Shown here piece by piece: positions 1,859 through 24,276 of a DNA stretch of 24,301 nucleotides. The notes beneath the pieces are model-generated. The model was given only the letters and a program-made list of their open reading frames with translations. It was not told the origin of the DNA and made no database searches. The DNA is taken from UHGV virus genome UHGV-1420800; one strand, written 5' to 3'. A program made the position numbers and the translations under genes. Every line of letters begins with the position of its first letter. Within the stretch, counting starts at the first letter, position 1. The DNA comes from a virus.

Positions 1859-1886
1859 TGACCATCTACATCACTGAGCTAATAAC

Positions 1887-1918: not shown

Positions 1919-1946
1919 GGGGGAGGGTAATTGGAGGCTTTAAGAA

Positions 1947-2162: not shown

Positions 2163-2172
2163 AGGAGTGAGC

Positions 2173-2379: not shown

Positions 2380-2387
2380 GGAATTCC

Positions 2388-2798: not shown

Positions 2799-2971
2799 GA
2801 CGACAGCGACGAAGTATCACCGACATCATCTGCGAAAACTGCAAATACCTTCCAACGAAGCGCTCCAGAAATAAACCCAAGCCAATCCCAAAAGAATCTG
2901 ACGTAAAAACCTTCAACTACACGGCTCACCTGTGGGATATCCGGTGGCTAAGACATCGTGCGAGGAAATGA
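2795..2971 (+). CDS. ninE: NinE protein
   Basis: 58 aa [58 protein letters not shown], nearly identical to remembered lambda NinE; below the 60-aa cutoff of the ORF track; ATGA overlap with ninB. Confidence 0.85.
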
Positions 2972-3333
2972 CAATGGATTATTCACAGTTAAGTGATTTT
3001 GAAATTAACGTGGCGGTATTCGAAGCCATTCATAACGGATCACCGGATTACAAAGAAGGTGAGAATGGCGATATGGTGTTTGTCTCATTTGAGGGAGACA
3101 TTGTAAACGGAGACGCAGTTGAAGTAGAAGTTGAGCGCGGATCCTTTAACCCATGCGCAAACCCAGCAGACGCATGGCCGATTATTGAAAAATACAGGAT
3201 TAGCATTATCAATCTCGATGAAGACGAGTGGGGTGCACGCGGTGTGGCCTACTGTAAATCTAAGCGAGCTATACATGAAAATCCCCTCCGCGCCGCCATG
3301 ATTGTCTTTCTCATGATGCAGAGAATCCAATAA
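2968..3333 (+). CDS. NinX-like hypothetical protein (occupies the ninE-ninF slot)
   Basis: ATG 2968 overlaps the ninE stop; 121 aa acidic protein; position corresponds to ninX of P22-type nin regions. Product identity by position only. Confidence 0.55.
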
Positions 3334-3509
3334 TGCTTAGCCCATCCCAATCCCTTCAATACCAGAAAGAAAGCGTCGAGCGGGCTTTAACGTGCGCTAA
3401 CTGCGGTCAGAAGCTGCATGTGCTGGAAGTTCACGTGTGTGAGCACTGCTGCGCAGAACTGATGAGCGATCCGAATAGCTCAATGTACGAGGAAGAAGAC
3501 GATGGCTAA
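3333..3509 (+). CDS. ninF: NinF protein
   Basis: 58 aa [58 protein letters not shown], near-identical to remembered lambda NinF with Cys-rich motif; not in the ORF track (<60 aa); start overlaps the stop of the upstream gene. Confidence 0.85.
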
Positions 3510-4113
3510 ACCAGCGCGAAGACGATGTAAAAACGATGAATGTCGGGAATGGTTTCACCCTGCATTCGCTAATCAGTGGTGGTGCTCTCCAGAGTGTGGA
3601 ACCAAGATAGCACTCGAACGACGAAGTAAAGAACGCGAAAAAGCGGAAAAAGCAGCAGAGAAGAAACGACGACGAGAGGATCAGAAACAGAAAGATAAAC
3701 TTAAGATTCGAAAACTCGCCTTAAAGCCCCGCAGTTACTGGATTAAACAAGCCCAACAAGCCGTAAACGCCTTCATCAGAGAAAGAGACCGCGACTTACC
3801 ATGTATCTCGTGCGGAACGCTCACGTCTGCTCAGTGGGATGCCGGGCATTACCGGACAACTGCTGCGGCGCCTCAACTCCGATTTGATGAACGCAATATT
3901 CACAAGCAATGCGTGGTGTGCAACCAGCACAAAAGCGGAAATCTCGTTCCGTATCGCGTCGAACTGATTAATCGCATCGGGCAGGAAGCAGTAGACGAAA
4001 TCGAATCAAACCATAACCGCCATCGCTGGACTGTCGAAGAGTGCAAGGCGATCAAGGCAGAGTACCAACAGAAACTCAAAGACCTGCGAAATAGCAGAAG
4101 TGAGGCCGCATGA
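3502..4113 (+). CDS. ninG: NinG / Rap recombination-associated endonuclease (Holliday junction resolvase family)
   Basis: 203 aa with N-terminal Cys cluster ([12 protein letters not shown]...CSPECG) and basic central region; matches lambda NinG(Rap) in length and sequence by recall. Confidence 0.9.
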
Positions 4114-4316
4114 CGTTCTCAGTAAAAACCATTCCAGACATGCTCGTTGAAGCATACGGAAACCAGACAGAAGTAGCACGCAGACTGAAATGTAGTCGCG
4201 GTACGGTCAGAAAATACGTTGATGATAAAGACGGGAAAATGCACGCCATCGTCAACGACGTTCTCATGGTTCATCGCGGATGGAGTGAAAGAGATGCGCT
4301 ATTACGAAAAAATTGA
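4110..4316 (+). CDS. ninH: NinH protein
   Basis: 68 aa [37 protein letters not shown]..., matches lambda NinH by recall; ATGA overlap with ninG. Confidence 0.85.
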
Positions 4317-4965
4317 TGGCAGCAAATACCGAAATATTTGGGTAGTTGGCGATCTGCACGGATGCTACACGAACCTGATGAAAAAACTGGAGACGATAGG
4401 ATTCGACACCAAAAAAGACCTGCTTATCTCGGTTGGCGATTTGGTCGATCGCGGTACAGAGAACGTCGAATGCCTGGAATTAATCACATTCCCCTGGTTC
4501 AGAGCTGTACGTGGAAACCATGAGCAAATGATGATTGATGGCTTATCAGAGCGCGGAAACGTCAATCACTGGCTGCTTAATGGCGGTGGCTGGTTCTTTA
4601 ATCTCGATTACGACAAAGAAATTCTGGCCAAAGCTCTTGCCCATAAAGCAGATGAACTTCCGTTAATCATCGAACTGGTGAGTAAAGATAAAAAATATGT
4701 CATCTGCCACGCCGATTATCCTTGTGACGAATACGAGTTTGGAAAGCCAGTTGATCATCAGCAGGTAATCTGGAACCGCGAACGAATCAGCAACTCACAA
4801 GACGGGATCGTGAAAGAAATTAAAGGCGCTGACACGTTCATCTTTGGTCATTCGCCAGCAGTGAAACCGCTCAAATTTGCCAACCAGATGTATATCGATA
4901 CCGGCGCAGTGTTCTGCGGAAATCTCACATTGATTCAGGTACAGGGAGAAGGCGCGTGGGCATAA
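4294..4965 (+). CDS. ninI: Ser/Thr protein phosphatase (lambda NinI / lambda-PPase family, metallophosphoesterase)
   Basis: From ATG 4294 ([25 protein letters not shown]...GDLVDRG...GNHE), the canonical metallophosphoesterase motifs GDxHG, GDxxDRG, GNHE; near-identical to remembered lambda phosphatase. The ORF track extends the frame upstream to 4219, which overlaps ninH. Confidence 0.9.
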
Positions 4966-5474
4966 GAGAACTAAACCTCACCAAAGAACAGCATGAGTGG
5001 CTGAATGGCTGGCTTGAACTGTGGGGCGCATGGGTTTATTCAGGTCGTCTGGAAAAGCGCATGAGCAGCGTAATAGCGAAGTTCATGGAGAGCGTAGAGC
5101 CGGGAAGAGTTATGACAAGGCCAATGTGCAATGATGATGATGGAATGTTGATTTCTCAGGTCGTTGATTCCGTCATGTACATTGACAAGAAAGCCTTTGG
5201 CATCCTCCTCAGCTACTACGCTCATGGTTCATCTAAGCGAGCAATTGCATCCTACTATCACGCGACTGCAAAGCCACGCAAGATGTGTGGACGTGGTGGC
5301 GAGGGATGGAGAAAACCTTCACTGGCAACCTGTAGAAACGAAATTGACGACATCCTGAAAGCGTCATTATTTGTTTTATACCAGCCAATGCAAAATGCTT
5401 TCAAAATGCGTAAACGTGTTGAGAAAGTTAAGCATGTTGCTGTTAAAAACCTTGACATGCAATTATCCATTTAG
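4956..5474 (+). CDS. Q: Late-gene antitermination protein Q (phage 82 / quuD-type Q family)
   Basis: Contains LELWGAW...[12 protein letters not shown], resembling the ERWGAW...RPQCCDDDAM motifs of E. coli prophage Q proteins; position between nin region and lysis genes. The only in-frame start upstream of the conserved motif is GTG 4956, so the start is uncertain. Confidence 0.75.
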
Positions 5475-5481
5475 CCATAAT
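5452..5481 (+). promoter_or_regulatory. Candidate late promoter pR' (-35 TTGACA at 5452-5457, -10 CATAAT at 5476-5481) with presumed qut region just downstream
   Basis: Consensus -35 hexamer and good -10 hexamer with 18-bp spacing, at the 3' end of Q where lambdoid late promoters lie. Assignment by motif and position only. Confidence 0.45.
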
Positions 5482-5490
5482 TAGAAGGTA

Positions 5491-5535
5491 AGCTGCCGTT
5501 AGTGACTCTTAAGTTGCAACGGTGGCTTTTTTGTT
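5491..5535 (+). terminator. Possible tR'-like terminator (imperfect hairpin followed by CTTTTTTGTTTG)
   Basis: agctgccgtt (5491-5500) can pair with aacggtggct (5518-5527) if two G-U pairs are allowed; a T-run follows at 5527-5535. The 17-nt loop is long, so this is tentative. Confidence 0.35.
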
Positions 5536-6050
5536 TGCACAACAGGTAAGAGCATTGAACCCGCAGACCTCGCGGAATTGGTGAAAGGTGCCGCGCAGTA
5601 CTCTTATCGTTGTGGTGAATACGCAGGCTGATGCGTTAATCAGGTGAACGAGACACCCGCCGGTCCGTGATATGGCACACCGTGCCGGTCATATCTGCCG
5701 CGGTTAGGTTTACGAGGATTTCGTAAAGCTGGTCTAGGGTGAAGCCGTGAAAGCGGAGGAAGTAAAACGAGGCGTCGGTACACGCCTATCGTCATTAAGT
5801 CGGAGTTCAGCACCGACCGCCACAACCCAACCTGAGCCGTAGCCACTGGCTATCCTGAATTCATCAGTGATAGTTATGCTGCGGCCTTCTACACATGACC
5901 TTCGTGAAAGCGGGTGGCATGAGGTTGCGCTAACAACCTCCTGCCGTTTTGCCCGTGCATATCGGTCACGAACAAATCTGATTACTAAACACAGTAGCCT
6001 GGATTTGTTCTATCAGTAATCGACCTTATTCCTAATTAAATAGAGCAAAT

Positions 6051-6076
6051 CCCCTTATTGTGGGTAAGACATGAAG
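6051..6076 (+). promoter_or_regulatory. Holin dual-start control region (sdi-like stem-loop CCCCTTATTGTGGG plus tandem starts ATG-AAG-ATG)
   Basis: Sequence aatccccttattgtgggtaagacATGaagATG closely resembles the lambda S translation-initiation region that sets the S107 antiholin to S105 holin ratio. Confidence 0.7.
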
Positions 6077-6394
6077 ATGCCAGAAAAACATGACCTGTTA
6101 GCCGCCATTCTCGCGGCAAAGGAACAAGGCATCGGGGCAATCCTTGCGTTTGCAATGGCGTACCTTCGCGGCAGATATAATGGCGGTGCGTTTACAAAAA
6201 CAGTAATCGACGCAACGATGTGCGCCATTATCGCCTGGTTCATTCGTGACCTTCTCGACTTCGCCGGACTAAGTAGCAATCTCGCTTATATAACGAGCGT
6301 GTTCATCGGCTACATCGGTACTGACTCGATTGGTTCGCTTATCAAACGCTTCGCTGCTAAAAAAGCCGGAGTAGAAGATGGTGGAAATCAATAA
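6071..6394 (+). CDS. S: Holin, lambda S family (class I, dual start Met1/Met3)
   Basis: 107 aa [39 protein letters not shown]..., essentially identical to remembered lambda S107 (one difference seen near the C-terminus). Confidence 0.95.
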
Positions 6395-6854
6395 TCAACG
6401 TAAGGCGTTCCTCGATATGCTGGCGTGGTCAGAGGGAACTGATAACGGACGACAGAAAACCAGAAATCATGGTTATGACGTCATTGTTGGCGGAGAGCTA
6501 TTCACTGATTACTCCGATCACCCTCGCAAACTTGTCACGCTAAACCAAAAACTCAAATCAACAGCAGCCGGGCGCTATCAGCTTCTTTCCCGTTGGTGGG
6601 ATGCCTACCGTAAGCAGCTTGGCCTGAAAGACTTCTCTCCCAAAAGTCAGGACGCTGTTGCGCTGCAGCAGATTAAGGAACGTGGCGCTTTGCCGATGAT
6701 TGATCGCGGTGATATCCGTCAGGCAATCGACCGTTGCAGCAATATCTGGGCTTCACTGCCGGGTGCTGGTTATGGTCAGTTTGAGCATAAGGCTGATAGC
6801 CTGATTGCAAAATTCAAAGAAGCAGGCGGAACGGTCAGAGAGATTGAAGTATGA
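6378..6854 (+). CDS. R: Endolysin, lambda R family (lytic transglycosylase)
   Basis: 158 aa [23 protein letters not shown]... matches lambda R in sequence and length; start overlaps the S 3' end as in lambda. Confidence 0.95.
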
Positions 6855-7318
6855 GTAGAGTAACCGCGATTATCTCTGCTCTGGTTATCTGCATCATCAT
6901 CTGTCTGTCATGGGCTGTTAATCATTACCGTGATAACGCTATCGCCTACAAAGAGCAGCGCGATAACAAGGCCAGTGAACTGGAGAAGGCGAACGCCACC
7001 ATTACTGACATGCAGCAGCGCCAGCGTGATGCTGATGCACTCGATGCTAAATACACGAAGGAGTTAGCTGATGCGAAAGCTGAAAATGATGCTCTTCGGC
7101 GCAAGCTTGATAATGGTGGCAGGGTGCTCGTCAAAGGAAAATGCCCTGTGCCATCCTCAGACGAAACCTCCAGCGCCTCCGGCATGGGCAATGATGCCAC
7201 CGTCGAACTCTCTCCAGTTGCTGGACGAAACGTTCTCGGTGTCCGGGACGGAATTATCCGCGACCAAACAGCACTGAGAACGCTTCAGGAATACATCAGG
7301 ACGCAATGCCTTCGATGA
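6851..7318 (+). CDS. Rz: Spanin, inner-membrane subunit (Rz / i-spanin)
   Basis: 155 aa with N-terminal TM segment ([18 protein letters not shown]) and coiled-coil periplasmic domain; follows R with ATGA overlap; lambda Rz-like. Confidence 0.9.
7071..7277 (+). CDS. Rz1: Spanin, outer-membrane lipoprotein subunit (Rz1 / o-spanin), embedded in the +1 frame of Rz
   Basis: ATG 7071 with AAGGAG 7 nt upstream; signal peptide plus lipobox (LIMVAGCSS) and proline-rich segment KPPAPPAW; embedded architecture as lambda Rz1. Confidence 0.8.
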
Positions 7319-7758
7319 TAGCGATAATTCTACTCATCATCCTTCACATCTGGCTCTGTAGACAGGGTGGTGATCACTTCTGGAGTGAATCCAGATTAAA
7401 CATCTCATTGCTGATGCTTGAAGTTGAGCATCTGGCGCGCGGTAAGGGGCTGCGTTGAGATAAGAGCCAGTTCATTACAAATCCTATCTACGGGTGGGCT
7501 TGATAATGAAACCGGAGTTAATTTCTGGTCACTAATTAACGGCAGTACAGCGAAACAACCCAAGCCAGTAAGCGGGGAAATAACACTGGCAGCCACTGAA
7601 AGATGAACCTCCTGCCTTATGGCAAAAAAGATTCTTTGTGGTGGCGGACTGATGGAAAGACATCGGATAGAATCAAGCAGTGGCTAGGGTAGTTCCCGAA
7701 AAGCGGACTCGTCACCGCCTGCCACTGAATCTATGGCGAACAACTAGACGAGGTTGTG

Positions 7759-7974
7759 ATGGATGATAACGGAAACCAATGGATCAATGTTGAACACCGG
7801 CTACCAGAAAGCAAAGAAGGGATGTGGTCTAAAGAGGTTATAGCTCTTACTGATACTGGTGACGTGTTCAAACTATCATGTATGGGCTCTTACTGGCAGA
7901 GAACCAAGGCATTCATCGATTCAGGAGCAAGCAAGGTTACACACTGGATGCCGCTTAATTACCCAGATGATTAA
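7759..7974 (+). CDS. Hypothetical protein, DUF551-like (C-terminal THWMPLNYP motif)
   Basis: 71 aa from ATG 7759 (GTG at 7756 also possible), RBS-like GAGG upstream. The HW-PL-P C-terminal motif is typical of a widespread small phage protein family; function unknown. Confidence 0.55.
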   Translation: MDDNGNQWINVEHRLPESKEGMWSKEVIALTDTGDVFKLSCMGSYWQRTKAFIDSGASKVTHWMPLNYPDD

Positions 7975-7988
7975 AACGGATGAAAAAT

Positions 7989-8016
7989 GAAAGGTCGCTC
8001 AGGCGGCCTTTTTTAT
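7989..8016 (+). terminator. Intrinsic terminator
   Basis: aaaggtcgc / gcggccttt 9-bp stem (one G-U pair) with tcag loop, followed by tttatt; immediately downstream of the 7759-7974 ORF. Confidence 0.6.
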
Positions 8017-8121
8017 TGCCATCACAAAAGCCATTCCCTACAGAGTGGCTTTGATAATGGCTTATACCCTACACGGGATAACTTAACTGATATCCCTTTT
8101 AACGGATAAACTGAGCCAACA

Positions 8122-8364
8122 ATGGCAGAGATTATTCCCATGACTGAAGAACAGAAATTCCAGTTAGAGATTTACAAGCTGGTCATGAACCAGAACGCAG
8201 CCGCAGAAGAAGCATTTCAATTCATTGGCACTGACGAACTGAAGCTTGAGCTATTCAAAATTCACTTCCAGTCAGGCGGCGCTAATTCAGATATCACGAC
8301 CCGCACTATCGAAGCGGTGCGTAAATCGAAGGAAGCGTTAGACCTGTTCACCACCGGAGTGTAA
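8122..8364 (+). CDS. Hypothetical protein (80 aa, acidic; same slot and size as P22 orf80)
   Basis: ATG-initiated 80-codon ORF between lysis and terminase genes; weak RBS; no domain recognised. Confidence 0.45.
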   Translation: MAEIIPMTEEQKFQLEIYKLVMNQNAAAEEAFQFIGTDELKLELFKIHFQSGGANSDITTRTIEAVRKSKEALDLFTTGV

Positions 8365-8367
8365 GAG

Positions 8368-8655
8368 ATGACTGAACAAGAAATGCCGAGATACCAGTGC
8401 CACAAAAAAGTTCGCGCCCTGAAGATTGGCTCTATAGAACATAAGCCAAACCCAGATCAGTCTGGTAAGACTGGCTCTTCTAGTTATGGGGCAATTATTC
8501 ATCCGGATGATAAGAAATACGCAGCATTTGATGTTAGCGCGGAATATATCTGTAAGCACCGACCAATGTCTGGAGGCTATTACGTTGTCTATGAGGATGG
8601 ATATGAATCATATTCTCCTGCTGAGGTATTTGAGTCTGGATATTCAAAATTATAG
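8368..8655 (+). CDS. Hypothetical protein (95 aa, Tyr/Gly-rich C-terminus)
   Basis: ATG 8368 with GGAG upstream, 4 nt after the stop of the preceding ORF; no family recognised. Confidence 0.5.
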   Translation: MTEQEMPRYQCHKKVRALKIGSIEHKPNPDQSGKTGSSSYGAIIHPDDKKYAAFDVSAEYICKHRPMSGGYYVVYEDGYESYSPAEVFESGYSKL

Positions 8656-8664
8656 GAACCCTCT

Positions 8665-8844
8665 ATGACAAGCGTCGTTGATCTTGGTAAGGAGAAGAAA
8701 TTCCCAATTACTCAAGAGCTATACGAGCGGCTTGAAAGCGTCATCCATGATTACGATGGTGAAATCAGTTTATGCGAGGCGATTGGCGCACTCGAATTGC
8801 TGAAGCAGTCACTGATTGAAGGCGCGAAAGAGTCCTTAACCTGA
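8665..8844 (+). CDS. Hypothetical protein (59 aa)
   Basis: MTSVVDLGKEKKFPITQELYERLESVIHDYDGEISLCEAIGALELLKQSLIEGAKESLT; not in the ORF track (<60 aa); fills the gap before the small terminase gene. Confidence 0.4.
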   Translation: MTSVVDLGKEKKFPITQELYERLESVIHDYDGEISLCEAIGALELLKQSLIEGAKESLT

Positions 8845-8860
8845 ATAACGATTAAGTGAG

Positions 8861-9355
8861 ATGAATATGGCAGCACCAAAGGGCAACCGATTTTGGGAGG
8901 CCCGCAGTAGTCATGGGCGAAACCCTAAATTCGAATCGCCTGAGGCGCTGTGGGCTGCTTGTTGTGAATACTTCGAGTGGGTTGAAGCTAACCCGCTATG
9001 GGAGATGAAGGCGTTCTCGTATCAGGGTGAAGTGATACAAGAGCCTATCGCCAAGATGCGAGCGATGACCATTACCGGCCTCACTCTGTTCATTGATGTG
9101 ACGCTTGAAACATGGCGCACATATCGCCTGCGAGAAGATTTATCTGAAGTCGTTACGCGAGCAGAGCAGGTCATCTACGACCAGAAATTCTCTGGCGCAG
9201 CCGCTGACCTTCTCAACGCTAACATCATCGCCCGTGATTTGGGCCTCAAAGAGCAGTCGCAAGTTGAAGACGTGACACCTGATAAGGGAGATCGCGATAA
9301 GCGACGCTCTCGTATCAAGGAGCTATTCAACCGTGGAACTGGACGCGATTCTTGA
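8861..9355 (+). CDS. 3: Terminase small subunit (P22 gp3-like)
   Basis: 164 aa (or 162 from the second ATG at 8867); N-terminus [22 protein letters not shown] recognised as P22 gp3; contains the pac-like sequence; overlaps the large terminase start. Confidence 0.9.
9134..9155 (+). other. Candidate pac site (headful packaging initiation sequence) inside the small terminase gene
   Basis: GAAGATTTATCTGAAGTCGTTA at 9134-9155, matching my recollection of the 22-bp P22 pac site, about 270 nt into gene 3. Confidence 0.55.
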
Positions 9356-13923: not shown

Positions 13924-15218
13924 TGGCATTAAATGAAGGTCAACTGGTCACGTATGCTCTGGATGAAATCATCGAAACCGTCCAGAACCTGACGCCAATG
14001 GCGTCCAAAGTGACAAAATACACCCCTCCGGCAGAATCCATGCAGCGTTCAAGCAACACCGTGTGGATGCCTGTTGAGCAGGAAGCGCCAACCCAGACTG
14101 GCTGGGATTTAACTGGCAACGCAACCGGGATTCTGGAACTCTCCGTGAAATGCAACATGGGCGATCCGGATAACGATTTCTTCGAGCTTCGTGCAGATGA
14201 CCTGCGTGATGAGCGTTCTTACCGTCGCCGCATCCAGGCATCCGCCAAAAAACTGGCGAATAACATTGAGTCAGCGATTGCCAAACAGGCAACTGAAATG
14301 GGCTCGCTTGTTGTTCACGATACCCGCGCAATTGGTCCATCTACTGGCCTGTCTGGCTGGGATTTTGTGTCTGATGCAGAGCGCCTGATGTTCTCCCGTG
14401 AGCTAAACCGCGATATGGGCATCAGTTACTTCCTGAACCCTGACGATTACCGCAAAGCAGGCCGCAACCTGGTAGATGGTGACATCTTTGGGCGCGTTAC
14501 TGAAGAAGCGTATCGCAACGGTACTATTCAGCGTCAGATTGCTGGCTTTGATGAAATTCTTCGCTCACCGAAACTTCCGGCAGTTACCAAGTCAACCGCT
14601 ACTGGTGTAACTGTTTCTGGTGCGCAGAAGTTTAAGCCGCAGGCATACACCCTTGATACCGATGGTAACAAAGAGAACGTCGATAACCGTGTTGCAACGG
14701 TGACCGTATCCTCCACCACCGGATTTAAGCGCGGCGACAAAATCAGCTTCACTGGTGTGAAATTCCTGTCTCAGATGGCGAAGAACGTGCTGACTGATGA
14801 TGCGACTTTCTCAATCACCCGTGTGATCGATGGTACTCACATCGAAATCACGCCGAAGCCGATTGCGCTGGATGACGCGTCACTGACAAAAGAAGAGAAG
14901 GCTTACGCTAACGTAAACACCTCTCTTGCTGATAGCACTCCGGTAAACGTTCTGAACGTGGCAACAACCACCGCTAACGTGTTCTGGGCTGATGACTCAA
15001 TCCGTCTGCTGTCTCAGCCGATCCCGGTAACCCATGAACTGTTTGCTGGCATGAAAACGTCTTCCTTCAGCATTCCTGGTATTGGTGTTAACGGCATCTT
15101 CGCAACGCAGGGTGATATCAACACTCTGTCTGGTAAGTGCCGTATTGCTGTGTGGTATTCAGCATGTGCTGTACGACCAGAGGCAATTGGTGTTGGTCTG
15201 CCTAACCAGACTGCGTGA
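13923..15218 (+). CDS. 5: Major capsid (coat) protein (P22 gp5-like, HK97 fold)
   Basis: 431 aa; MALNEGQ... N-terminus and many recognisable P22 coat stretches ([45 protein letters not shown]). Confidence 0.95.
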
Positions 15219-15224
15219 TAACCA

Positions 15225-15250
15225 GAGGGAGCTTCGGCTCCCTTTTTTAT
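15225..15250 (+). terminator. Intrinsic terminator downstream of coat gene
   Basis: gggagc-ttcg-gctccc hairpin (6-bp stem, UUCG tetraloop) at 15227-15242 followed by TTTTTT. Confidence 0.75.
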
Positions 15251-15262
15251 CTGGAGACAAGC

Positions 15263-15494
<232 letters not shown>

Positions 15495-15517
<23 letters not shown>

Positions 15518-15995
15518 TTTAGTTCTTGCGGCATTACGTAAGCTCGGTGTGGCATCAAATGCCACGTTAACCGATGTCGAACCGCAGTCTATGGAAGACG
15601 GCGTCAACGACCTTGAAATGATGATGGCGGAATGGCTTGGCGGTGATGCGTCACCAGGTATCAACGTTGGCTACATTTTCGCTGATGCAGATGTCGCTCC
15701 AGATCCGGGCGATGAGCACGGTTTATCAAATAACGCTATCAATGCCGTCATTTTCAACCTTGCCTGCCGCATTGCTCCAGATTATGCGCTGGAAGCTTCT
15801 GCAAAACTTATAACCACTGCCAGATACGGGAAAGAGCGACTCGTCAAACTGTCTGCAATGGACAGAGCAAAAGCCGCTAAATGTAAGTCTGGTTATCCAA
15901 ACCGTATGCCTGTTGGTAGCGGTAATCAGTTGGCGAAGTGGAACGGTTGGAATTACTTCCACCGGAAGGAACCTTGCGATAACGGGAGCGAATAA
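15495..15995 (+). CDS. 4: Head completion / tail accessory factor gp4 (P22 gp4-like; portal-binding, reported muralytic activity)
   Basis: 166 aa from ATG 15495: [33 protein letters not shown]..., recognised as P22 gp4; AAGG-type RBS upstream. The ORF track start at 15402 would add an SQ-repeat extension, which is judged unlikely. Confidence 0.85.
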
Positions 15996-17414
15996 ATGCC
16001 GATTCAGCAACTTCCGCTTATGAAAGGTGTCGGCAAAGACTTTCGAAACGCCGACTATATCGACTATCTGCCAGTGAATATGTTGGCTACACCCAAAGAA
16101 ATCCTGAACAGCAGCGGATATCTTCGCTCATTCCCGGGCATTGCCAAACGTTCTGATGTGAACGGCGTATCGCGCGGCGTCGAGTACAACATGGCGCAGA
16201 GTGCTGTTTATCGCGTGTGTGGTGGCAAGCTCTACAAAGGAGAAAGTGAAGTCGGTGATGTTTCCGGAAGTGGTCGTGTATCAATGGCGCATGGTCGGAC
16301 ATCTCAGGCGGTTGGCGTTAACGGGCAACTGGTCGAGTATCGCTATGATGGCACGGTTAAAACCGTCTCAAACTGGCCTACAGACAGCGGATTCACGCAG
16401 TATGAGTTAGGCTCAGTCCGCGACATTACGCGCTTACGTGGGCGTTATGCGTGGTCAAAAGACGGAACTGATTCATGGTTCATCACTGACCTTGAAGACG
16501 AATCGCATCCTGACCGCTACAGCGCACAATATCGTGCAGAATCGCAGCCTGACGGCATCATTGGCATCGGAACATGGCGAGACTTCATCGTCTGTTTTGG
16601 TTCATCGACGATTGAGTATTTTTCCCTGACGGGTGCAACCACCGTTGGTGCTGCTTTGTATGTCGCACAGCCATCTCTTATGGTGCAGAAAGGCATTGCC
16701 GGAACTTACTGCAAAACGCCATTCGCTGATTCTTATGCGTTCATCAGCAATCCGGCAACGGGTGCACCGTCTGTATACATCATTGGCTCCGGGCAGGTGT
16801 CACCAATCGCCAGCGCGAGCATTGAGAAAATCCTCCGCTCCTACACTGCTAATGAACTGGCTGATGGTGTAATGGAATCGCTGCGATTTGATGCGCATGA
16901 GCTTCTGATTATCCATCTTCCGCGTCACGTCCTTGTGTACGACGCATCTTCAAGCGCCAATGGTCCTCAATGGTGTGTGCTGAAAACAGGGCTGTATGAC
17001 GATGTGTACCGCGCTATCGACTTCATTTACGAAGGCAATCAGATAACGTGCGGCGATAAGCTGGAATCGGTTACCGGCAAATTGCAGTTCGATATCAGCA
17101 GCCAGTACGACAAGCAACAGGAACACCTGCTGTTTACTCCACTGTTCAAAGCGGATAACGCCAGAGTGTTCGACCTTGAGGTTGAATCGTCAACTGGCGT
17201 TGCGCAGTACGCCGACCGCCTGTTCCTCTCTGCAACCACTGACGGCATAAATTACGGTCGTGAGCAGATGATTGAGCAGAATGAACCATTCGTTTACGAC
17301 AAACGCGTTTTGTGGAAGAAAGTAGGGCGCATCAGGAAAAACATTGGTTTCAAATTGCGCGTTATCACGAAGTCACCTGTCACTCTGTCTGGCGCTCAGA
17401 TAAGGATTGAGTAA
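15996..17414 (+). CDS. 10: Tail accessory factor gp10 (P22 gp10-like)
   Basis: 472 aa, same length as P22 gp10; in the conserved order 4-10-26. Confidence 0.9.
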
Positions 17415-18262
17415 TGGCGGATTCGAATCTCAATGTGCCGGTAATCATCCAAGCTACGCGGCTCGATACATCAGTCCTTCCACGCAATATCTTCTCGCAG
17501 TCGTATCTGCTTTACGTTATCGCACAGGGCACTGATGTTGGTAACGTGGCTAACAAGGCCAACGAGGCCGGACAGGGCGCTTATGACGCACAAGTCAGGA
17601 ACGATGAGCAGGATGTGATTCTCGCTGACCATGAGCAGCGAATTTCTGCTGCGGAAGCAACGCTTGTTAATCATGAGGAGCGAATCAGCCAGGCAGAATC
17701 AACTCTTCAGGAACATGAAACACGAATAGCTCAGAATGAAAGCGATATTGCGTCTCTTGATACCAGAGTTCAGTCGCTCGAATCGCAGGTTTCAGACCAT
17801 GAAACGCGCATCGATGCTCTGGAGTATGCCACTACTCGCAAAAAGTCAGAGGTTGTTTACTCTGGCGTATCTGTAACCATCCCGACAGCGCCGACCAACC
17901 TTGTTAGCCTGCTGAAAACGCTCACTCCGTCATCCGGCACGTTGGCACCGTTCTTCGACACCGTTAACAACAAGATGGTTGTGTTCAACGAGAACAAAAC
18001 CTTGTTCTTCAAGCTGTCGATCGTCGGGACGTGGCCCAGCGGAACCGCCAACAGGTCAATGCAGCTAACCTTTTCCGGCTCTGTTCCTGACACACTGGTA
18101 AGCAGTCGCAACTCGGCGACAACAACCGATAACATCTTGTTAGCTATGTTCTTCAGCGTGGATAAAGACGGCTTTCTTGCCACAAATGGCAGCACGTTAA
18201 CCATTCAGTCAAATGGTGCGGCGTTTACTGCCACAACCATCAAGATAATCGCGGAGCAGTAA
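17414..18262 (+). CDS. 26: Tail needle protein (gp26 family) with non-P22 C-terminal domain
   Basis: N-terminus [43 protein letters not shown] matches the P22 gp26 gp10-binding tip; followed by a trimeric coiled-coil with repeated HE-RI motifs and a roughly 140-aa C-terminal domain unlike P22's. At 282 aa it is longer than the 233 aa I recall for P22 gp26. Confidence 0.8.
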
Positions 18263-18717
18263 TGATTCAGTTCAAACCAACGCGAAACATCGACCTGATC
18301 GAAGCAGTCGGAAATCACCCTGACATTATTGCCGGAAGCAACAATGGTGATGGATACGATTACAAGCCTGAATGCCGTTACTTTGAGGTTAACGTGCACG
18401 GTCAGTTTGGCGGCATTGTTTACTATCAGGAGATTCAGCCGCTGACATTCGATTGCCACGCCATGTACCTGTCAGAGATTCGCGGCTTCAGCAAGGAAAT
18501 CGGGCTGGCGTTCTGGCGATACATTCTGACTAACACCACCGTTCAGTGCGTCACATCGTTCGCTGCGCGCAAATTCCGCCACGGTCAGATGTACTGCGCA
18601 ATGATTGGCCTTAAGCGTGTAGGAACCATCAAGAAATACTTCAAAGGCGTGGATGACGTGACGTTTTACAGCGCCACACGCGAAGAACTAATCGACTTCC
18701 TGAATCACGGGAGATAG
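18262..18717 (+). CDS. gp14-like virion assembly/ejection-associated protein
   Basis: 151-aa ORF in the slot occupied by gene 14 in P22-like phages (between tail needle and ejection proteins); assignment by synteny only. Confidence 0.5.
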   Translation: MIQFKPTRNIDLIEAVGNHPDIIAGSNNGDGYDYKPECRYFEVNVHGQFGGIVYYQEIQPLTFDCHAMYLSEIRGFSKEIGLAFWRYILTNTTVQCVTSFAARKFRHGQMYCAMIGLKRVGTIKKYFKGVDDVTFYSATREELIDFLNHGR

Positions 18718-18719
18718 CT

Positions 18720-19412
18720 ATGTTATATGCATTTAAGCTGGGCAGAAAACTGCGCGGCGAGGAACCTTATTGCCCTGAAAAAGGCGGGAAAGGTGGCAGC
18801 TCTGATAAAAGCGCAAAGTATGCAGCAGAAGCTCAGAAGTATGCCGCAGACCTGCAAAATCAGCAGTGGCAGACGATCATGAAAAACCTTGCTCCGTTCA
18901 CGCCGCTTGCGGAGCAGTATGTTAACCAGCTTCAGAATCTTTCCAGTTTAGAAGGTCAGGGGCAGGCACTTAATCAGTATTACAACTCTCAGCAGTATAA
19001 AGACCTTGCAGGTCAGGCGCGTTACCAGAGTCTTGCTGCTGCGGAGGCGACGGGTGGACTTGGTTCGACAGCCACAAGCAATCAACTGGCTACGATCGCG
19101 CCGACACTCGGTCAGTCTTGGTTATCAAATCAGATGAGCAATTACAACAATCTGGCAAACGTTGGGCTTGGTGCGCTGCAAGGTCAGGCAAACGCCGGGC
19201 AGACGTACGCCAACAACATGAGCAGCATTGCACAGCAAAGCGCAGCACTTGCCGCTGCTAATGCCAATAAACCATCAAGTCTTCAGACTGCAATTAGCGG
19301 CGGCACGTCTGGTGCGATTGCCGGTGCAGGTCTTGCCAGCCTTTTGGGAACATCAACGCCTTGGGGCGCTGGCATTGGTGCTGGTATCGGATTGCTTGGC
19401 TCGTTGTTTTAA
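18720..19412 (+). CDS. 7: Ejection (internal virion) protein gp7-like
   Basis: 230 aa; N-terminus MLYAFKLGRKLRGEEPYCPEKGGKGG recognised as gp7 type; Gly/Ala-rich hydrophobic C-terminus. Confidence 0.85.
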   Translation: MLYAFKLGRKLRGEEPYCPEKGGKGGSSDKSAKYAAEAQKYAADLQNQQWQTIMKNLAPFTPLAEQYVNQLQNLSSLEGQGQALNQYYNSQQYKDLAGQARYQSLAAAEATGGLGSTATSNQLATIAPTLGQSWLSNQMSNYNNLANVGLGALQGQANAGQTYANNMSSIAQQSAALAAANANKPSSLQTAISGGTSGAIAGAGLASLLGTSTPWGAGIGAGIGLLGSLF

Positions 19413-19421
19413 GGGGTAATC

Positions 19422-20753
19422 ATGGCTACTTGGCAAGGATCAAATGGCGGATTGTTAGCTGGTATCGGCGGCGTCAACTCAAACGCTCCGAGCGTAAATG
19501 ACATCGGCAATACGCTTCAGCTTATCAGGCAGAACAATGATATTGAGCGTTCAGGCGCTAACAATGTTGGGCTTACTGCTTTGCAAGGCCTTTCAGGCAT
19601 TGCAGGGGTGTTTCAGCAGGAAAAGCAGGCTCAGCGGCAGAAAGAATTTCAGCAGGCGTACGCTAATGCTTATGCGTCTGGTGATCGCGGTGCTTTGCGT
19701 CAGTTGGCTACTCAATATCCAGACCAGATTGAATCCGTCCGTAAAGGCATGGGGTTCATTGATGAAGACCAGCGTAATTCTATCGGCACCTTAGCGGCTG
19801 GCGCACGCCTTGCGTCATCGTCTCCAGAAGCAATGCAATCATGGCTGCAAAACAACGCCGGTGAGTTAGCTCGTGTTGGCGTTAATCCTCAGGACGTCGC
19901 TCAGATGTACCAACAGAACCCGCGGCAGTTCGGCGAATTTGTCGATCACCTGGGGATGAACAGTCTCGGACCCGAAAAATACTTTGACCTACAGGATAAA
20001 ATGCAGGGTCGCCAGGTTACCATGCGCGGTCAGGATCTGGATTCGCAAACCGCCGCTCGGAATCAGGCAATCACAATGCGCGGGCAAGATATCCAGGCGA
20101 ATTTAGGTCAGCAGCGCATTAATCTGGACGCAGAAACAAACCGCATTAACAACGAAAATAAGCGCCTTGACCGGATGCTATCAGCAGAAACTAACGACCT
20201 GAAGCGCCAGGAAATACAGAGCCGCATAGCAGCCAACAACCAGCAGTTGCAGCAGAAGCAGCAAGCGCTAAATGATGGCTACAAAGACGGCATCAACACC
20301 CTCACAACCAGCATGTTCACTCTGAACGATATCGTTAGTTCTCCTTCACTTAAGAGCATTACAGGCTTACGTGGAGTAATCCCCAACGTTCCAGGCTCAC
20401 AGGCTGCAGACACTCAGGCACGACTTGATACCTTTAAATCCCAAGCATACCTGACAGCGGTTCAGGCCATGCGAGGCATGGGCGCACTTTCTGATGCCGA
20501 GGGCAAAAAGCTCGACCAGGCTGTTGGTTCGCTGCAGAACTCGCAGAGCGAGGAGTCCTTTCGTCGCAACGCTGGCGTCATCCTGAACACGCTCAACCAG
20601 AAGCGTAATGAGGCGGTTGGTAAGTACGTTCAGCAAAACGGTATCAAGCGAGTGGAAGCGCCTCAGGCTTCTATAGATTACCTGAAGCAACACCCCGAGC
20701 TGTCAATCGACTTCATTAATCGCTACGGATATCTTCCATCTTTGGGGCAGTAA
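19422..20753 (+). CDS. 20: Ejection protein gp20-like
   Basis: 443 aa, Q/N-rich, in the conserved 7-20-16 order; stop is adjacent to the start of the next gene. Confidence 0.85.
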   Translation: MATWQGSNGGLLAGIGGVNSNAPSVNDIGNTLQLIRQNNDIERSGANNVGLTALQGLSGIAGVFQQEKQAQRQKEFQQAYANAYASGDRGALRQLATQYPDQIESVRKGMGFIDEDQRNSIGTLAAGARLASSSPEAMQSWLQNNAGELARVGVNPQDVAQMYQQNPRQFGEFVDHLGMNSLGPEKYFDLQDKMQGRQVTMRGQDLDSQTAARNQAITMRGQDIQANLGQQRINLDAETNRINNENKRLDRMLSAETNDLKRQEIQSRIAANNQQLQQKQQALNDGYKDGINTLTTSMFTLNDIVSSPSLKSITGLRGVIPNVPGSQAADTQARLDTFKSQAYLTAVQAMRGMGALSDAEGKKLDQAVGSLQNSQSEESFRRNAGVILNTLNQKRNEAVGKYVQQNGIKRVEAPQASIDYLKQHPELSIDFINRYGYLPSLGQ

Positions 20754-23147
20754 ATGGCTAATTACCGTGATTTGTTAGAGCAGGCTGGCGCACGTTACGG
20801 TGTGCCAGAAGGGTTGATGACTGCACTGGGTGCCAAGGAGTCTTCTTACAACCCTGCCGCAGTAAGCTCCGCCGGGGCTGTAGGATTGACTCAGGTCATG
20901 CCTGGGACATGGCGTGATATGGGTTATACCGATGAGCAAATGCAAAACCCCGAATATCAGGCTGACGCTGGCGCGCGCTATCTGGCAAAGATGTACCAGC
21001 AGTTTGGTAACTGGCGTGACGCTCTTCAGGCTTATCACGACGGTCCCGGCAACGTTATGAAGGCAAAGCGTGGTGAATATACGCCAGGGCCTGAAGGCCG
21101 CGGTTACGTTGATGATCGCTTTGCTCAATGGGCGGGTGACCCGGTGACAGACTCAACAGTAGAACAGCGCGCCACCTCTGCAAAGGTACATCCTCAGCAA
21201 GACCCTAACAACCCGTTTGCACAACTGGAAGCACAGTCATCCGAACAAGTATCGGCATCAGGCGTGCAGTCAGACCCAAATAATCCATTTGCTCAGATTG
21301 AGCAGCAGGCAGCCAGTCAGCAGCCACCTCAACCCGTAAGTTCTGTCGCACCGAAACCTGTTCAGCAGCAAGGCGGAATAATGTCTGACCTTGGTAATGG
21401 ACTTGCTGAAACCGGGCGCGGCTTACTACAGGCAGGAATCAACGTAGCGAACATACCTGCTGAACTCACTGATGCTGTAACAAGCGCGGCGGCTTGGGCT
21501 GGCGGTAAACTCGGCATTGGCGATGGTACATATCAACCAGCACCACGAGTAACAACGCAGGGATTAGAGCAGGACTTTGGCCTTCAGCAAGGCGCGCTGA
21601 CTCCACAAACGACAGAGGGAAGGGTATTTGCTGAAGCATTGCCTTACCTCACTCCTGCTGGCGTTGAGAGAGCGGCAGCACAGGCACCAACACTTGCTGG
21701 TCGAATTGCTCAGGGGGCAACTCGCCTTCTCGCAGAAAACGCAGTTGGATCACTTGCTGCAAACAGTGCGAAAGATGATGCGGAAGCACTCGCCACCGAT
21801 TTAGGCGTTGGTGTGCTGGCTGGCGGTGCTATTAACGCTGCCGGACGTGGATTAGGTGCTGCTTATCGTGGTGTTCGTGGTTCGATAGCACCAGAAGCGC
21901 AACAGGCTATCAGATTTGCAGAACGTGAAGGAGTTCCTCTGCACACCACAGACCTGTTACAACCCATTTCCCGCGTCGGAAAAATGGCGCAGACGACAGC
22001 GGAAAATATCCCCCTGGCTGGCACAAGCGGAATGAGAGCAACGCAACAGGAAGCGAGAAGCCAGTTGGTGCAGAGATTTGCTGATAAATTCGGTGAGTAT
22101 GATCCAGCTGTTGTTATTGACAGCCTTAAAGCGAAAACATCAGGAATTCGTCGTGCTGCAGGGAACCGTCTTGAGCAGGTTCAGAATGCTATGGCGGGAA
22201 TAAACATTCAGCCTGCAAGAGCAATTCAGCAGATTGATACAGAAATATCTAACCTGCAGAAGCTTGGTAAGGTTGCTGATAACGAGACTATTTCAAAACT
22301 TCAGTCCTATCGTGATGAGCTTGTTCGCAATGCTGGTCCTGATGGTCCGGTAAATCTGGATTTGAAGCAATTAAGCGATCTGCGCAGCCAGTTCAGAATG
22401 GACGTGAAGGGGGAGCGACCAGTGTTACCAAACCGTTCCGATGCTGCCATTCAGCGCGTTTACAAGGCAATGACCGACGATATCAATGGTGCCATTGGTC
22501 AGAATCTTGGCAACGATACTCTCCGTAAATATCAGCAGGCCAATGCCGTCTACGCTGACGAAGCGGCGAAACTAAAGAATACCAGGCTGAAGAATGTTCT
22601 CATGAAAGGCGACCTGACGCCGGAAGTTGTCAACAACATGCTATTCAGCAAGAACAAATCGGAAATTAAGACGCTGTATAACTCAGTTGGTCGTGTTGGC
22701 AGGGCGCAAATGCGCAATGGCATCATTGGAAAGGCGATGGAGAAATCAGGTGGTTCCCCTGACCAGTTCCTTCGACAGCTTAACATCCTGCAAAACCAGA
22801 CTGGCATCACATTTAAAGGTCAGGAAGCCGCTTATCTGAAAGGATTGAAAAACTACCTGCAATCCACGCAGCAGGCTGCAAAAGCGGCAGTAACAACACC
22901 AACAGGGCAGCAAACCATCCCGTTCATTATCGGATATGGGACAGCAATGAACCCTGCGACAACTGGCGCAGCGGTAAGCTACGGACTTCTTACTCGCGCC
23001 TATGAGAGCGAGCCATTCAGAAATGCAATGCTCCGAATGGCAAACACCCCACGCGGATCAACAGCGTTCGAGAAAGCCATGCAGCAGGCACAAAAGGCCA
23101 TTAACGCCCTGACTCAGGGGGCTAAGTCTGATGCGCTGTCAGAATAG
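20754..23147 (+). CDS. 16: Ejection protein gp16-like with N-terminal soluble lytic transglycosylase (SLT) domain
   Basis: 797 aa. Residues about 20-100 carry the SLT signature ...AKESSYNPAAVSSAGAVGLTQVMPGTWRDMGY...YLAKMY...AYHDGPG (catalytic Glu in the ES motif). The rest is Ala/Gly/Gln-rich like E proteins. Confidence 0.8.
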   Translation: MANYRDLLEQAGARYGVPEGLMTALGAKESSYNPAAVSSAGAVGLTQVMPGTWRDMGYTDEQMQNPEYQADAGARYLAKMYQQFGNWRDALQAYHDGPGNVMKAKRGEYTPGPEGRGYVDDRFAQWAGDPVTDSTVEQRATSAKVHPQQDPNNPFAQLEAQSSEQVSASGVQSDPNNPFAQIEQQAASQQPPQPVSSVAPKPVQQQGGIMSDLGNGLAETGRGLLQAGINVANIPAELTDAVTSAAAWAGGKLGIGDGTYQPAPRVTTQGLEQDFGLQQGALTPQTTEGRVFAEALPYLTPAGVERAAAQAPTLAGRIAQGATRLLAENAVGSLAANSAKDDAEALATDLGVGVLAGGAINAAGRGLGAAYRGVRGSIAPEAQQAIRFAEREGVPLHTTDLLQPISRVGKMAQTTAENIPLAGTSGMRATQQEARSQLVQRFADKFGEYDPAVVIDSLKAKTSGIRRAAGNRLEQVQNAMAGINIQPARAIQQIDTEISNLQKLGKVADNETISKLQSYRDELVRNAGPDGPVNLDLKQLSDLRSQFRMDVKGERPVLPNRSDAAIQRVYKAMTDDINGAIGQNLGNDTLRKYQQANAVYADEAAKLKNTRLKNVLMKGDLTPEVVNNMLFSKNKSEIKTLYNSVGRVGRAQMRNGIIGKAMEKSGGSPDQFLRQLNILQNQTGITFKGQEAAYLKGLKNYLQSTQQAAKAAVTTPTGQQTIPFIIGYGTAMNPATTGAAVSYGLLTRAYESEPFRNAMLRMANTPRGSTAFEKAMQQAQKAINALTQGAKSDALSE

Positions 23148-23236
23148 CTTCGCAAACACCATGAACGTGCAAAAACCAAATATGTAGAACGCAATATTCA
23201 GCATATCTCTGTGCATAAATCCTCCGTAACGGATGG

Positions 23237-23497
23237 TTATCTGCTGTCTTTTTTATATAGCTTCTTGAGCGTATCAAAGACAATTTTCTTAACCATATCA
23301 GATTGTTGTTCTGCCATACGCTCTGCATCGTCAATGTAAACTGATGCAGAGCTTTGTTTATCCAATGATTCCTCAATCGCTGCAATTATCTCTGAGTTCA
23401 GCGACCTGTTATTCATCTTCGCACGCTGCTTAATTTTCGAGTGGAGTTCATGCGGAAGTCTCAAGTGAAACTGCGCCTCGTCGTATTTGCTGTACAT
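23237..23497 (-). CDS. mnt: Mnt-like repressor (Arc/MetJ ribbon-helix-helix family)
   Basis: Reverse-strand ORF; from Met12 (RBS AAGGA upstream) 86 aa: ...QFHLRLPHELHSKIKQRAKMNNRSLNSEII...DDAERMAEQQSDMVKKIVFDTLKKLYKK, closely resembling P22 Mnt (RHH N-terminus, C-terminal tetramerisation helix). Alternative start at 23530. Confidence 0.8.
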   Translation of the reverse strand: MYSKYDEAQFHLRLPHELHSKIKQRAKMNNRSLNSEIIAAIEESLDKQSSASVYIDDAERMAEQQSDMVKKIVFDTLKKLYKKDSR

Positions 23498-23618
23498 CCT
23501 TGATGCCTCACCAGTTGGGTGGAATGGCATCGTAACCTACTGGATAAATACTCAATAGTACCATTTCGGTATGCAATCACATCATGGTTGCATCATATCA
23601 TTCGTCTGGAGCAATGAA
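23498..23618. promoter_or_regulatory. Divergent control region between mnt and tailspike, containing inverted repeats (candidate operators)
   Basis: Inverted repeat ATGCAA-N11-TTGCAT at 23571-23593 and a shorter TACT-caat-AGTA at 23549-23560; AT-rich; must carry the leftward mnt promoter and any rightward tailspike promoter. Exact promoter elements not resolved. Confidence 0.4.
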
Positions 23619-24276
23619 ATGTCAGATATCACCGCAAATGTTGTGGTAAGCATGCCTTCGCAACTCTTCACTATGGCTCGTTCTTTTAAAGCCGTAGCCA
23701 ATGGCAAAATTTATATCGGTAAAATTGACACTGACCCGGTAAACCCTGAAAACCAGATTCAGGTTTATGTGGAGAACGAAGATGGTTCTCACGTTCCTGT
23801 TTCGCAACCAATCATCATTAACGCTGCTGGATATCCGGTATATAACGGACAGATTGCCAAGTTCGTAACTGTGCAAGGCCATTCTATGGCTGTTTATGAT
23901 GCGTACGGTGTGCAGCAGTTCTATTTTCCGAATGTGCTGAAGTACGACCCTGATCAATTTCGAAGTGAGCTGTCTGAAGAAGATGGTGCAACTAAAATTG
24001 GATACTTGGCCGGTACAGTAGCGGATAGTTTGTCATATTGGGCAACGCCAGAGCAATATGGAGCAATTGGAGATGGTGTAGCTGATGATACAGTGGCGGT
24101 GACTAATGCTATTATGACTGGAAGATGCCTCATGAAGAGAGGTTCCACATATCGTATGGTGATGAATGAGGAAAATGTCATCACTCCCCCAGCTGGTGCA
24201 TATATTGATTTTAACGGTGCTAGAATAACTCATGAGAAAACTGGGTACCTTGTTTTTCTTAACAAAAACCAAGACG
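23619..24276 (+). CDS. 9: Tailspike protein, 5' part (P22 gp9-type head-binding domain followed by a beta-helix/pectate-lyase-like receptor-binding domain); 3' end cut off by contig end
   Basis: ATG 23619 (GGAG 8 nt upstream): [43 protein letters not shown]...[10 protein letters not shown] matches the conserved P22-like tailspike N-terminal domain. Then ...[24 protein letters not shown]..., a motif typical of right-handed beta-helix glycanases. Frame is open to the adapter junction. Confidence 0.9.

Follow-up and report, generated by a model that had tools for sequence, protein, structure and literature searches.

A lytic transglycosylase domain at the head of the third ejection protein of a P22-like phage of Escherichia coli

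Does a P22-like phage of Escherichia coli carry a cell-wall-cleaving domain on its third ejection protein and, if so, is the arrangement real, how common is it and what might it do during infection? The question is raised by a stretch of 24,301 nucleotides (UHGV virus genome UHGV-1420800; this whole stretch is called the window here), in which an earlier note had described the gene at 20754..23147 (+) as a homologue of P22 gene product (gp) 16 fused to an N-terminal SLT (family-1 lytic transglycosylase) domain. That description is confirmed. The gene is one uninterrupted open reading frame (ORF) of 797 codons that starts with ATG and has no internal stops; its product strongly matches Pfam SLT (PF01464) over amino acids 7–110 (E 2.8e-25; 88.6 bits against a gathering cut-off of 21.3; profile positions 2–110 of 117) and, in a profile search, PHROG 770 ‘DNA transfer protein’ over amino acids 108–797 (E 9.9e-239). 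The fusion is real and ordinary; the less ordinary finding is a linkage between its N-terminal head and the C-terminal tail of gp20, the ejection protein encoded directly upstream.

The SLT domain (amino acids 1–125; 20754..21128 (+)) was delimited with Pfam, an AlphaFold2 model and Foldseek, and the signature motifs quoted in the earlier note are there to the letter, reading KE29S30SYNPAAVSSAGAVG44LTQ47VMPGT and AY94HDGPG. Searching PDB sequences with phmmer returned E. coli Slt70 (1QSA) as the best match, at E 5.8e-11, and also MltE, MltC, Pseudomonas Slt and T7 gp16 (7EYB/7K5C; E 6.5e-4), the domain being nearer to cellular Slt70 than to T7 gp16. The Slt70 alignment pairs query residue 4 with residue 453 and runs gap-free through the active site, so that E29 falls on residue 478, which we take to be the catalytic residue of Slt70. 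From this alignment and from conservation among 62 sequences (the window SLT domain and 61 diverse homologues), Glu29 is predicted to be the catalytic acid and Glu29–Ser30 (codons 20838..20843 (+)) to form the ES motif. Invariant over the 62 sequences were E29, S30, A42, G44, Q47, T52, A72–Y76, Y94 and G97, and both substrate-groove motifs were found, as G44-L-T-Q47 (G-L-M-Q) and A93-Y94-H-D-G97 (A-Y-N-x-G).

The AlphaFold2 model, of amino acids 1–210 and built on the same alignment, has a confident, goose-lysozyme-like α-helical fold, with block-mean predicted local distance difference test (pLDDT) values of 91–98 over residues 1–100 and about 50–58 over residues 131–190. Its top Foldseek matches in the PDB were the catalytic domains of Slt70, LtgA, Pseudomonas Slt, MltC, MltE, MltF and MltD (Slt70 1QTE, E 3e-6; probability 1.00 for the lytic transglycosylase matches). 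Like the catalytic domain of Slt70 (1QSA, 1QTE) and like MltE and MltC, the window domain combines ES, GLxQ and AYxxG motifs with a lysozyme-like fold; unlike those housekeeping enzymes, which have signal peptides, lipid anchors or superhelical accessory domains, it comes without such parts and is joined to a phage ejection protein. Over codons 1–206, comparison with phage IME10, E. coli 90-9281 and phage Sf101 gave 12 synonymous differences and 1 non-synonymous difference, and selection on these codons, judged from the aligned genes, is purifying. The domain looks complete and catalytically competent, lytic activity is predicted for it, and we regard the feature as real, under selection and probably functional.

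The SLT domain is followed by a flexible linker rich in Gln, Pro, Ser and Ala (amino acids 126–206; 21129..21371 (+); 20% Gln, 14% Pro, 12% Ala and 12% Ser), recognized from its composition, its pLDDT and blastn breakpoints, which also make it the recombination joint between SLT module and body. It holds the related segments DPNNPFAQLE and DPNNPFAQIE, each of which contains a motif N-x-F-[AD]-Q-[FLIV]: NPFAQL at amino acids 153–158 (21210..21227 (+)) and NPFAQI at amino acids 177–182 (21282..21299 (+)). Exactly two copies of this motif were present in each SLT-type gp16 examined and none in any of four SLT-less gp16s examined; at least two copies arose in none of 20,000 shuffles of the window protein. 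Placement varies, with both copies after the SLT domain in the Lederbergvirus-type window protein, and one copy right at the N-terminus and the other about 60 amino acids after the SLT domain in Sortsnevirus, Skarprettervirus, Murrayvirus and Kosakonia phage Kc259. A tandem DNA repeat behind the two DPNNPFAQ copies was considered and rejected, as Tandem Repeats Finder returned nothing at a minimum score of 30; the repeat exists at the protein level only. Two further SLT-gp16 proteins, P0107 (880 amino acids) and P0098 (886 amino acids), carry a linker insert of about 95 amino acids right after the second NPFAQIE (KxSRPKGLIQEGNIDIHNRPVVKNxDGSISTVRSMS...GKHLGxFDNP...), for which no Pfam, PHROG or PDB sequence match was found.

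The remainder of the protein (amino acids 207–797; 21372..23144 (+)) is a gp16 body of the Sf6 gp13 type, and by analogy with P22 gp16 it presumably forms the cytoplasmic-membrane part of the channel. By tblastn it shares 97% identity with Sf6 gp13 (88% over the 669 columns of the whole blastp alignment), and its identity to P22 gp16 is about 33–35% (blastp 33% over 616 columns, E 1.5e-84). A phmmer search of all PDB sequences, T7 gp16 (7EYB, 7K5C) among them, with amino acids 205–797 found no solved structure for the body (nothing better than E 0.7). PF26808 (Phage_P22_gp16) is precomputed, along with PF01464, on proteins 99% identical to the window protein; a local Pfam scan of the window protein itself did not return PF26808.

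Aligned at their N-termini, all gp16s converge at G-(I/F)-M-S-D-L-G or S-L-M-Q-x-A-G-D. Upstream of this point Sf6, Gally and HK620 carry a head starting MAKAWKDV... (about 55 amino acids and a Gln-rich stretch), P22 and BTP1 carry MKVTANGKTF..., and the window protein, IME10 and Sf101 carry the SLT domain and linker. As different heads lie upstream of a common convergence point, the SLT module replaces a head and has not been prepended to one: the SLT domain (about 125 amino acids) and the 81-amino-acid linker stand in for the 54–77-amino-acid N-terminal segment of the Sf6 and P22 proteins. The earlier note was right that P22 gp16 has roughly 600 amino acids (609) and mistaken in calling the N-terminal 130 or so amino acids extra. 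Sf6 gp13, the closest SLT-less relative of the window protein, and P22 gp16 share with it the operon position and the G-I/F-M-S-D-L-G starting point of the body; they differ in their short, non-enzymatic heads, which give no SLT match, and in a gp20 partner whose C-terminal half is unlike that of the window gp20. Pfam and NCBIfam found no SLT domain in Sf6 gp13, Gally gp12 or VSe13 gp13 (all 665 amino acids), and HK620 gp16 (722 amino acids), with its MAKAWKDV head on a P22-like body start, also has none. An internal start at Met210 that would yield an SLT-less isoform is not supported: Met is common there, but no Shine–Dalgarno sequence before it is conserved across phages and BTP1 has Ile.

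The joints on either side of the SLT head are seen from blastn breakpoints. Sf6 DNA matches the window at 95.7% over 16996–19958 and at 94.9% over 21366–23217 and is unrelated between, whereas Sf101 matches at 98.2% over 18260–21371 and has an unrelated gp16 body. The similarity to Sf101 thus stops at 21371 and that to Sf6 begins at 21366, and together the two sets of breakpoints define the mobile unit as 19959–21365. This mosaic module unlike Sf6 (19959..21365 (+)) takes in gp20 from near amino acid 180 to its C-terminus, the ...RYGYLPSLGQ tail included, and gp16 amino acids 1–204. Sf101 joins the SLT–linker module to a P22-type body. The module is inherited as one unit, with at least 80% of it present in 66 of the 71 E. 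coli genomes that have any match. Two apparent E. coli exceptions to the linkage of gp20 C-terminal part and SLT (H207 and H208) were dismissed as truncated pseudogenes in degraded prophages.

A fused gene in a single assembly could come from an assembly error, a frameshift or a prophage deletion that joined two genes. Single-sequence deletion fusions do exist on the same body (NinG–gp16, gp7–gp16 and gp20N–gp16; P0116, P0117 and P0119), and truncated pseudogenes occur in degraded prophages. Against such an origin, the identical architecture is found in the isolated phages IME10, Sf101, Huey, Dewey, APC_JM3.2 and phiKp_30, in complete E. coli genomes, in other enterobacterial genera and in related virulent phage genera, and the gene is under purifying selection. 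The full gene was present at 80% or more in 52 of 5,426 complete E. coli genomes, these and IME10 having a full-length ORF at 97–99.5% DNA identity, and the 797-amino-acid protein falls in a 90%-identity cluster of 1,295 member sequences in a set of 5.8 billion proteins. This full-length conservation across many independent genomes and phages refutes the frameshift or assembly error that the earlier note had named as a threat to its claim, and an artefactual origin is almost certainly wrong. Nor did the gp16 N-terminus prove to be a general ‘cargo slot’: the NinG–, gp7– and gp20N–gp16 proteins and one with a coiled-coil N-terminus (P0111) are each single sequences and are most likely internal deletion products of decaying prophages, not functional variants.

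Among the same complete E. coli genomes, the module 19959–21365 was present at 80% or more in 66 and a P22-like gene 7 in 761–1,170, so the module is present in about 6–9% of the genomes with a P22-like gene 7. It was also found in 13 of 79 loci in IMG/VR and genomes that were located through gp7, most of which share the gp7 allele of the window. The SLT module is identical or 99% identical in IME10, Sf101, Huey, Dewey, APC_JM3.2 and phiKp_30, and occurs in ECO26.1 as well. Homologues with the same PF01464 and PF26808 architecture occur in Cronobacter, Klebsiella aerogenes, Kosakonia and Enterobacter at 72–86% identity. Farther away, Skarprettervirus, Murrayvirus (IME_EC2, KF591601), Sortsnevirus and Kosakonia phages have the same gene order and a third ejection gene for 977–1,038 amino acids, with an N-terminal SLT domain 57–67% identical to that of the window and a PHROG 770 body.

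These relatives also answer a point that the earlier note had left undecided, whether close relatives already carry a described fusion. RefSeq calls the 99%-identical E. coli proteins ‘lytic transglycosylase domain-containing protein’, NCBI gives the Cronobacter, Klebsiella, Kosakonia and Enterobacter homologues the same name, and GenBank annotates the genes of Sf101 and IME_EC2 as ‘transglycosylase’. The SLT–gp16 fusion is thus already known, being widespread and annotated in databases, and is not a new kind of system. In the literature, a 2022 review describes P22-like phages as being without a transglycosylase domain, and a full-text search that did not cover Casjens & Thuman-Commike 2011 or Casjens & Grose 2016 found no paper on SLT-bearing gp16 in P22-like phages. 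The value of the finding is modest and lies mainly in correcting the review statement and in offering a natural system for experiments. The 797-amino-acid gene is unannotated in the IME10 records (NC_019501 31064-33457), which have only 27 features genome-wide. Conversely, 665-amino-acid Sf6-type gp16s without an SLT domain (VSe13, P0115, P0118 and the E. coli hits H90–H102) are still named ‘lytic transglycosylase domain-containing protein’ in RefSeq and GenBank, and the proteins so named belong to clusters of 1,304 and 2,252 members. The idea that the name marks a second, cryptic SLT domain was discarded, as Pfam and NCBIfam find none; the name looks like over-propagation from SLT-bearing relatives.

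What might the domain do? The earlier note had read the protein as a virion-packaged, peptidoglycan-degrading enzyme injected with the DNA; homology supports this reading, and every check at sequence level that the note had proposed came out in its favour. We think it likely, reasoning from P22 and T7, that the protein is a virion-packaged and ejected lytic transglycosylase, tethered through its linker to the membrane part of a P22-type conduit. About a dozen copies would be packaged in the head and, after adsorption, expelled through the portal–tail channel ahead of the DNA, to refold in the periplasm. There the SLT domain would cut bonds between N-acetylmuramic acid (MurNAc) and N-acetylglucosamine (GlcNAc) locally, leaving 1,6-anhydroMurNAc ends and widening the murein mesh around the nascent gp7–gp20 conduit, while the body would attach to the gp20 tube at its C-terminal foot, completing the channel across the cytoplasmic membrane. 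P22 gp16 itself is known to be packaged, to leave the virion ahead of the DNA and to be needed for DNA entry through the cytoplasmic membrane. For the P22 virion, PMC8402733 gives about 12 copies of gp16. According to a 2026 preprint, a dodecamer of P22 gp20 reaches through the periplasm and traverses the peptidoglycan; some six gp16 sit on its C-terminal ‘club foot’ and cross the cytoplasmic membrane, and gp16 of one virion can complement another extra-cytoplasmically, through the periplasm (10.64898/2026.09.03.749273).

The closest functional model is T7 gp16 (internal virion protein D; 7EYB, 7K5C). Like the window protein, it is a podophage ejection protein, the third of its set and the largest, and it begins with an SLT domain that has a catalytic Glu (E37 in T7, PMC8954989; predicted E29 here), followed by an extended segment and then a membrane or cytoplasmic body. 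The N-termini of T7-like gp16s (BA14 and phiYeO3-12) are 33–35% identical to the window SLT domain by tblastn. The T7 body, by contrast, has no sequence similarity to that of the window protein and the T7 protein is longer (1,318 against 797 amino acids); P22-like ejection proteins, moreover, form no core stack and are found without order within and around the portal barrel and lumen (PMC8954989; 10.64898/2026.09.03.749273). The window protein would parallel T7 gp16 in function without being a member of its family, as the bodies lack homology. In T7, gp16-N (amino acids 1–156) is a transglycosylase needed for genome internalization only when peptidoglycan is highly cross-linked, and the ‘molecular tape’ that follows it (amino acids 157–228) cements the gp15 tunnel (PMC8954989). 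By this analogy, SLT activity in the window phage is probably accessory, useful with a highly cross-linked wall and otherwise dispensable; that bodies 97% identical occur with and without the domain likewise argues that it is accessory and not essential.

Several points weigh against an ejected enzyme that opens the wall. Activity, packaging and ejection are argued wholly by analogy, for the window protein as for its P22-like homologues. In the in-situ model of P22, the gp20 barrel lies across the peptidoglycan and gp16 is assembled last (10.64898/2026.09.03.749273); if that order applies here, the SLT domain would arrive after the wall has been crossed and would have a role other than opening the way, in which case the enzyme may enlarge or stabilize the passage, or free the gp20 foot. 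The motifs themselves depart from the homologues at one place only, position 95 of the window protein, which is His in place of the Asn carried by at least 90% of homologues (AYNAG to AYHDG). Finally, P22-like phages already have gp4, reported to be muralytic (PMC5380687), and P22 and Sf6 infect well without an SLT domain, so that the benefit of the domain may be small.

The mosaic boundaries raise the further question of whether the gp16 head has a partner. We set gp20 C-termini beside gp16 N-termini, first in 15 reference loci and then in the 79 loci found through gp7 (IMG/VR and GTDB genomes), and tabulated 89 pairs, namely all 79 and 10 of the 15 reference loci. Three classes accounted for 84 of them: a gp20 tail ...(F/Y)S(S/N)LWGD with a gp16 head MAK(A/P)WK(D/E)V (42 loci), a tail ...GI(Q/R/K)FTVE with a head M(M)KVTANG (23 loci) and a tail ...(Y/F)G(Y/F)LPxxx with an SLT head (19 loci). 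Within these classes there was no exception to the pairing, and the other five pairs had other tail and head types. The cores and bodies, by contrast, recombine freely with the tail–head classes: of the gp16 bodies in cluster A, 38 have a MAKAWK head and 12 an SLT head, and gp20 core A is paired with both LWGD and FTVE tails. In the LWGD class the shared gp20 tail comes down to about nine residues, after a Gln- and Pro-rich stretch.

One explanation is that the very end of gp20 and the N-terminal domain of gp16 have co-adapted to dock with each other, such pairs coming in what would be at least three interchangeable boundary-module classes. We offer this tentatively and hold it to be possible but rather doubtful, as DNA adjacency alone also favours linkage of tail and head: in the window the ATG of gene 16 abuts the TAA stop of gene 20, with a GGGG run 6–9 nucleotides 5′ of the ATG. 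If true, the foot of the gp20 periplasmic tube would be the anchor point for the SLT domain and its doubled N-x-F-[AD]-Q-[FLIV] motif, giving the P22 group a counterpart of the ‘wings and molecular tape’ of T7 gp15:gp16-N and placing a murein-cutting enzyme at a defined position in the conduit, not free in the periplasm.

The same evidence bears on an alternative, that the SLT head serves mainly for structural docking, its SLT domain or NPFAQ motifs binding the gp20 C-terminal tail or foot, with catalysis secondary or dispensable. Tail and head remain unseparated through all 84 loci of the three main classes while the junctions on both sides are shuffled, and the ...Y/F-G-Y/F-L-P tail is kept from the window to Skarprettervirus, Sortsnevirus and Murrayvirus although their gp20s are only 26–30% identical overall. 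The SLT-less heads, MAKAWKDV... and MKVTANG..., are small non-enzymatic segments in the same place, which argues that the position itself has a non-catalytic role, and T7 offers a precedent, the ‘wings’ and ‘molecular tape’ of its gp15 periplasmic tunnel being made by gp16-N (PMC8954989). However, the motifs for catalysis and for the substrate groove are strictly kept even between distant homologues, as would not be expected of a purely structural domain, and with tail and head only 0–3 nucleotides apart on the DNA some linkage is expected without any interaction. We judge a mainly structural head unlikely; docking as such is compatible with the ejected, tethered transglycosylase that we favour.

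An ejected enzyme would act at entry, and the enzymes of lysis have to be considered beside it. The window has a lambda-type lysis cassette at 6071–7318, with an S-like holin, an R-type endolysin and Rz. The endolysin (6378..6854 (+)) matches lambda R, the lambda lysozyme (PDB 1AM7, E 3.7e-104, 158 of 158 amino acids); no Pfam-A match was found for it at E up to 0.001, and RefSeq labels a homologue GH24. It is conceivable that unassembled or released gp16 reaches the wall through lambda-type holin lesions and aids the endolysin at lysis. The gp16 N-terminus has no signal-peptide-like sequence, and the protein would be made late, together with the S-type holin and R-type endolysin. Yet the holin, endolysin and Rz cassette is already complete, the SLT domain is fused to a protein of a packaged and ejected family, and T7-like phages with the same architecture are documented to act at entry (PMC8954989; PMC5380687). 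Late action is accordingly very improbable, and action at entry by the tethered, ejected protein remains the reading that we prefer.

The earlier note had also counted three separate murein-cleaving activities in this phage, and at the level of homology the count stands. Besides the endolysin there is a homologue of the tail adaptor gp4 (15402..15995 (+); Pfam P22_Tail-4 PF11650, E 1.8e-58), gp4 being the sole P22 protein listed among virion-associated lysins in a review (PMC5380687). With the SLT–gp16 fusion, three proteins of reported or predicted murein-cleaving activity thus appear to be encoded, two of which, SLT-gp16 and the lambda R type, would be lytic transglycosylases of different folds.

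The distribution of the module sets up natural experiments. Sf6-type and IME10- or window-type proteins have bodies that are 97% identical and are told apart in essence by their head modules; Sf101, with this SLT module on a body of P22 type, adds a second natural comparison. Comparing Sf6-type, window-type and Sf101 pairs could show what a virion-borne lytic transglycosylase contributes to DNA entry in podophages. P22 and Sf6 are also the best structural models for assembly of the ejection channel. Sf101 gp13 (911 amino acids), Huey and Dewey differ from the window in carrying the module on another gp16 body, of P22 type in Sf101. Skarprettervirus, Murrayvirus IME_EC2, Sortsnevirus (sortkaff and IME279) and Kosakonia phage Kc259 resemble it in synteny (gp4, gp10, ..., gp7-like, gp20-like, SLT protein), in having two copies of N-x-F-[AD]-Q-[FLIV] and in a gp20 tail Y/F-G-Y/F-L-P. 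They differ from it in a leader of about 30 amino acids before the SLT domain and in longer bodies, about 28% identical, and they are virulent phages of other genera.

Around the fusion gene, the operon gp4–gp10–gp26–gp14–gp7–gp20–gp16 is intact, with homologues of P22 gp10, gp26, gp14, gp7 and gp20 identified upstream by PHROG profiles. The first ejection protein is the gene 7 homologue (230 amino acids; 18720..19412 (+); PHROG 598) and the second the gene 20 homologue (443 amino acids; 19422..20753 (+); Pfam Inj_translocase PF16928, E 7.9e-68; PHROG 2534), presumed to be the periplasmic tube protein; the fusion gene is third in this gp7–gp20–gp16 cluster, in the order also found in E. coli 90-9281, Sf6 and P22. 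The closest annotated genome is a prophage beside tRNA-Arg/intS in E. coli O128:H27 90-9281 (96.4% over 15001–23959), and phage IME10 is 97.5% identical in DNA over 18262–23959. From its gene content and closest genomes, the window is the late region of a P22-like (Lederbergvirus-type) temperate E. coli phage, and the fusion gene belongs to such a phage or prophage.

Downstream of the fusion gene, on the opposite strand, Pfam identified an Arc/Mnt-like repressor, beyond which lies a 111-amino-acid ORF (23622-23957 (−)) that none of the Pfam families matched. In P22 sieA directly follows gene 16, which is not so in the window. The IME_EC2 record splits the gp20 homologue into two overlapping ORFs (280 and 161 amino acids); taken together they align with a single gp20, pointing to a frameshift or sequencing error there.

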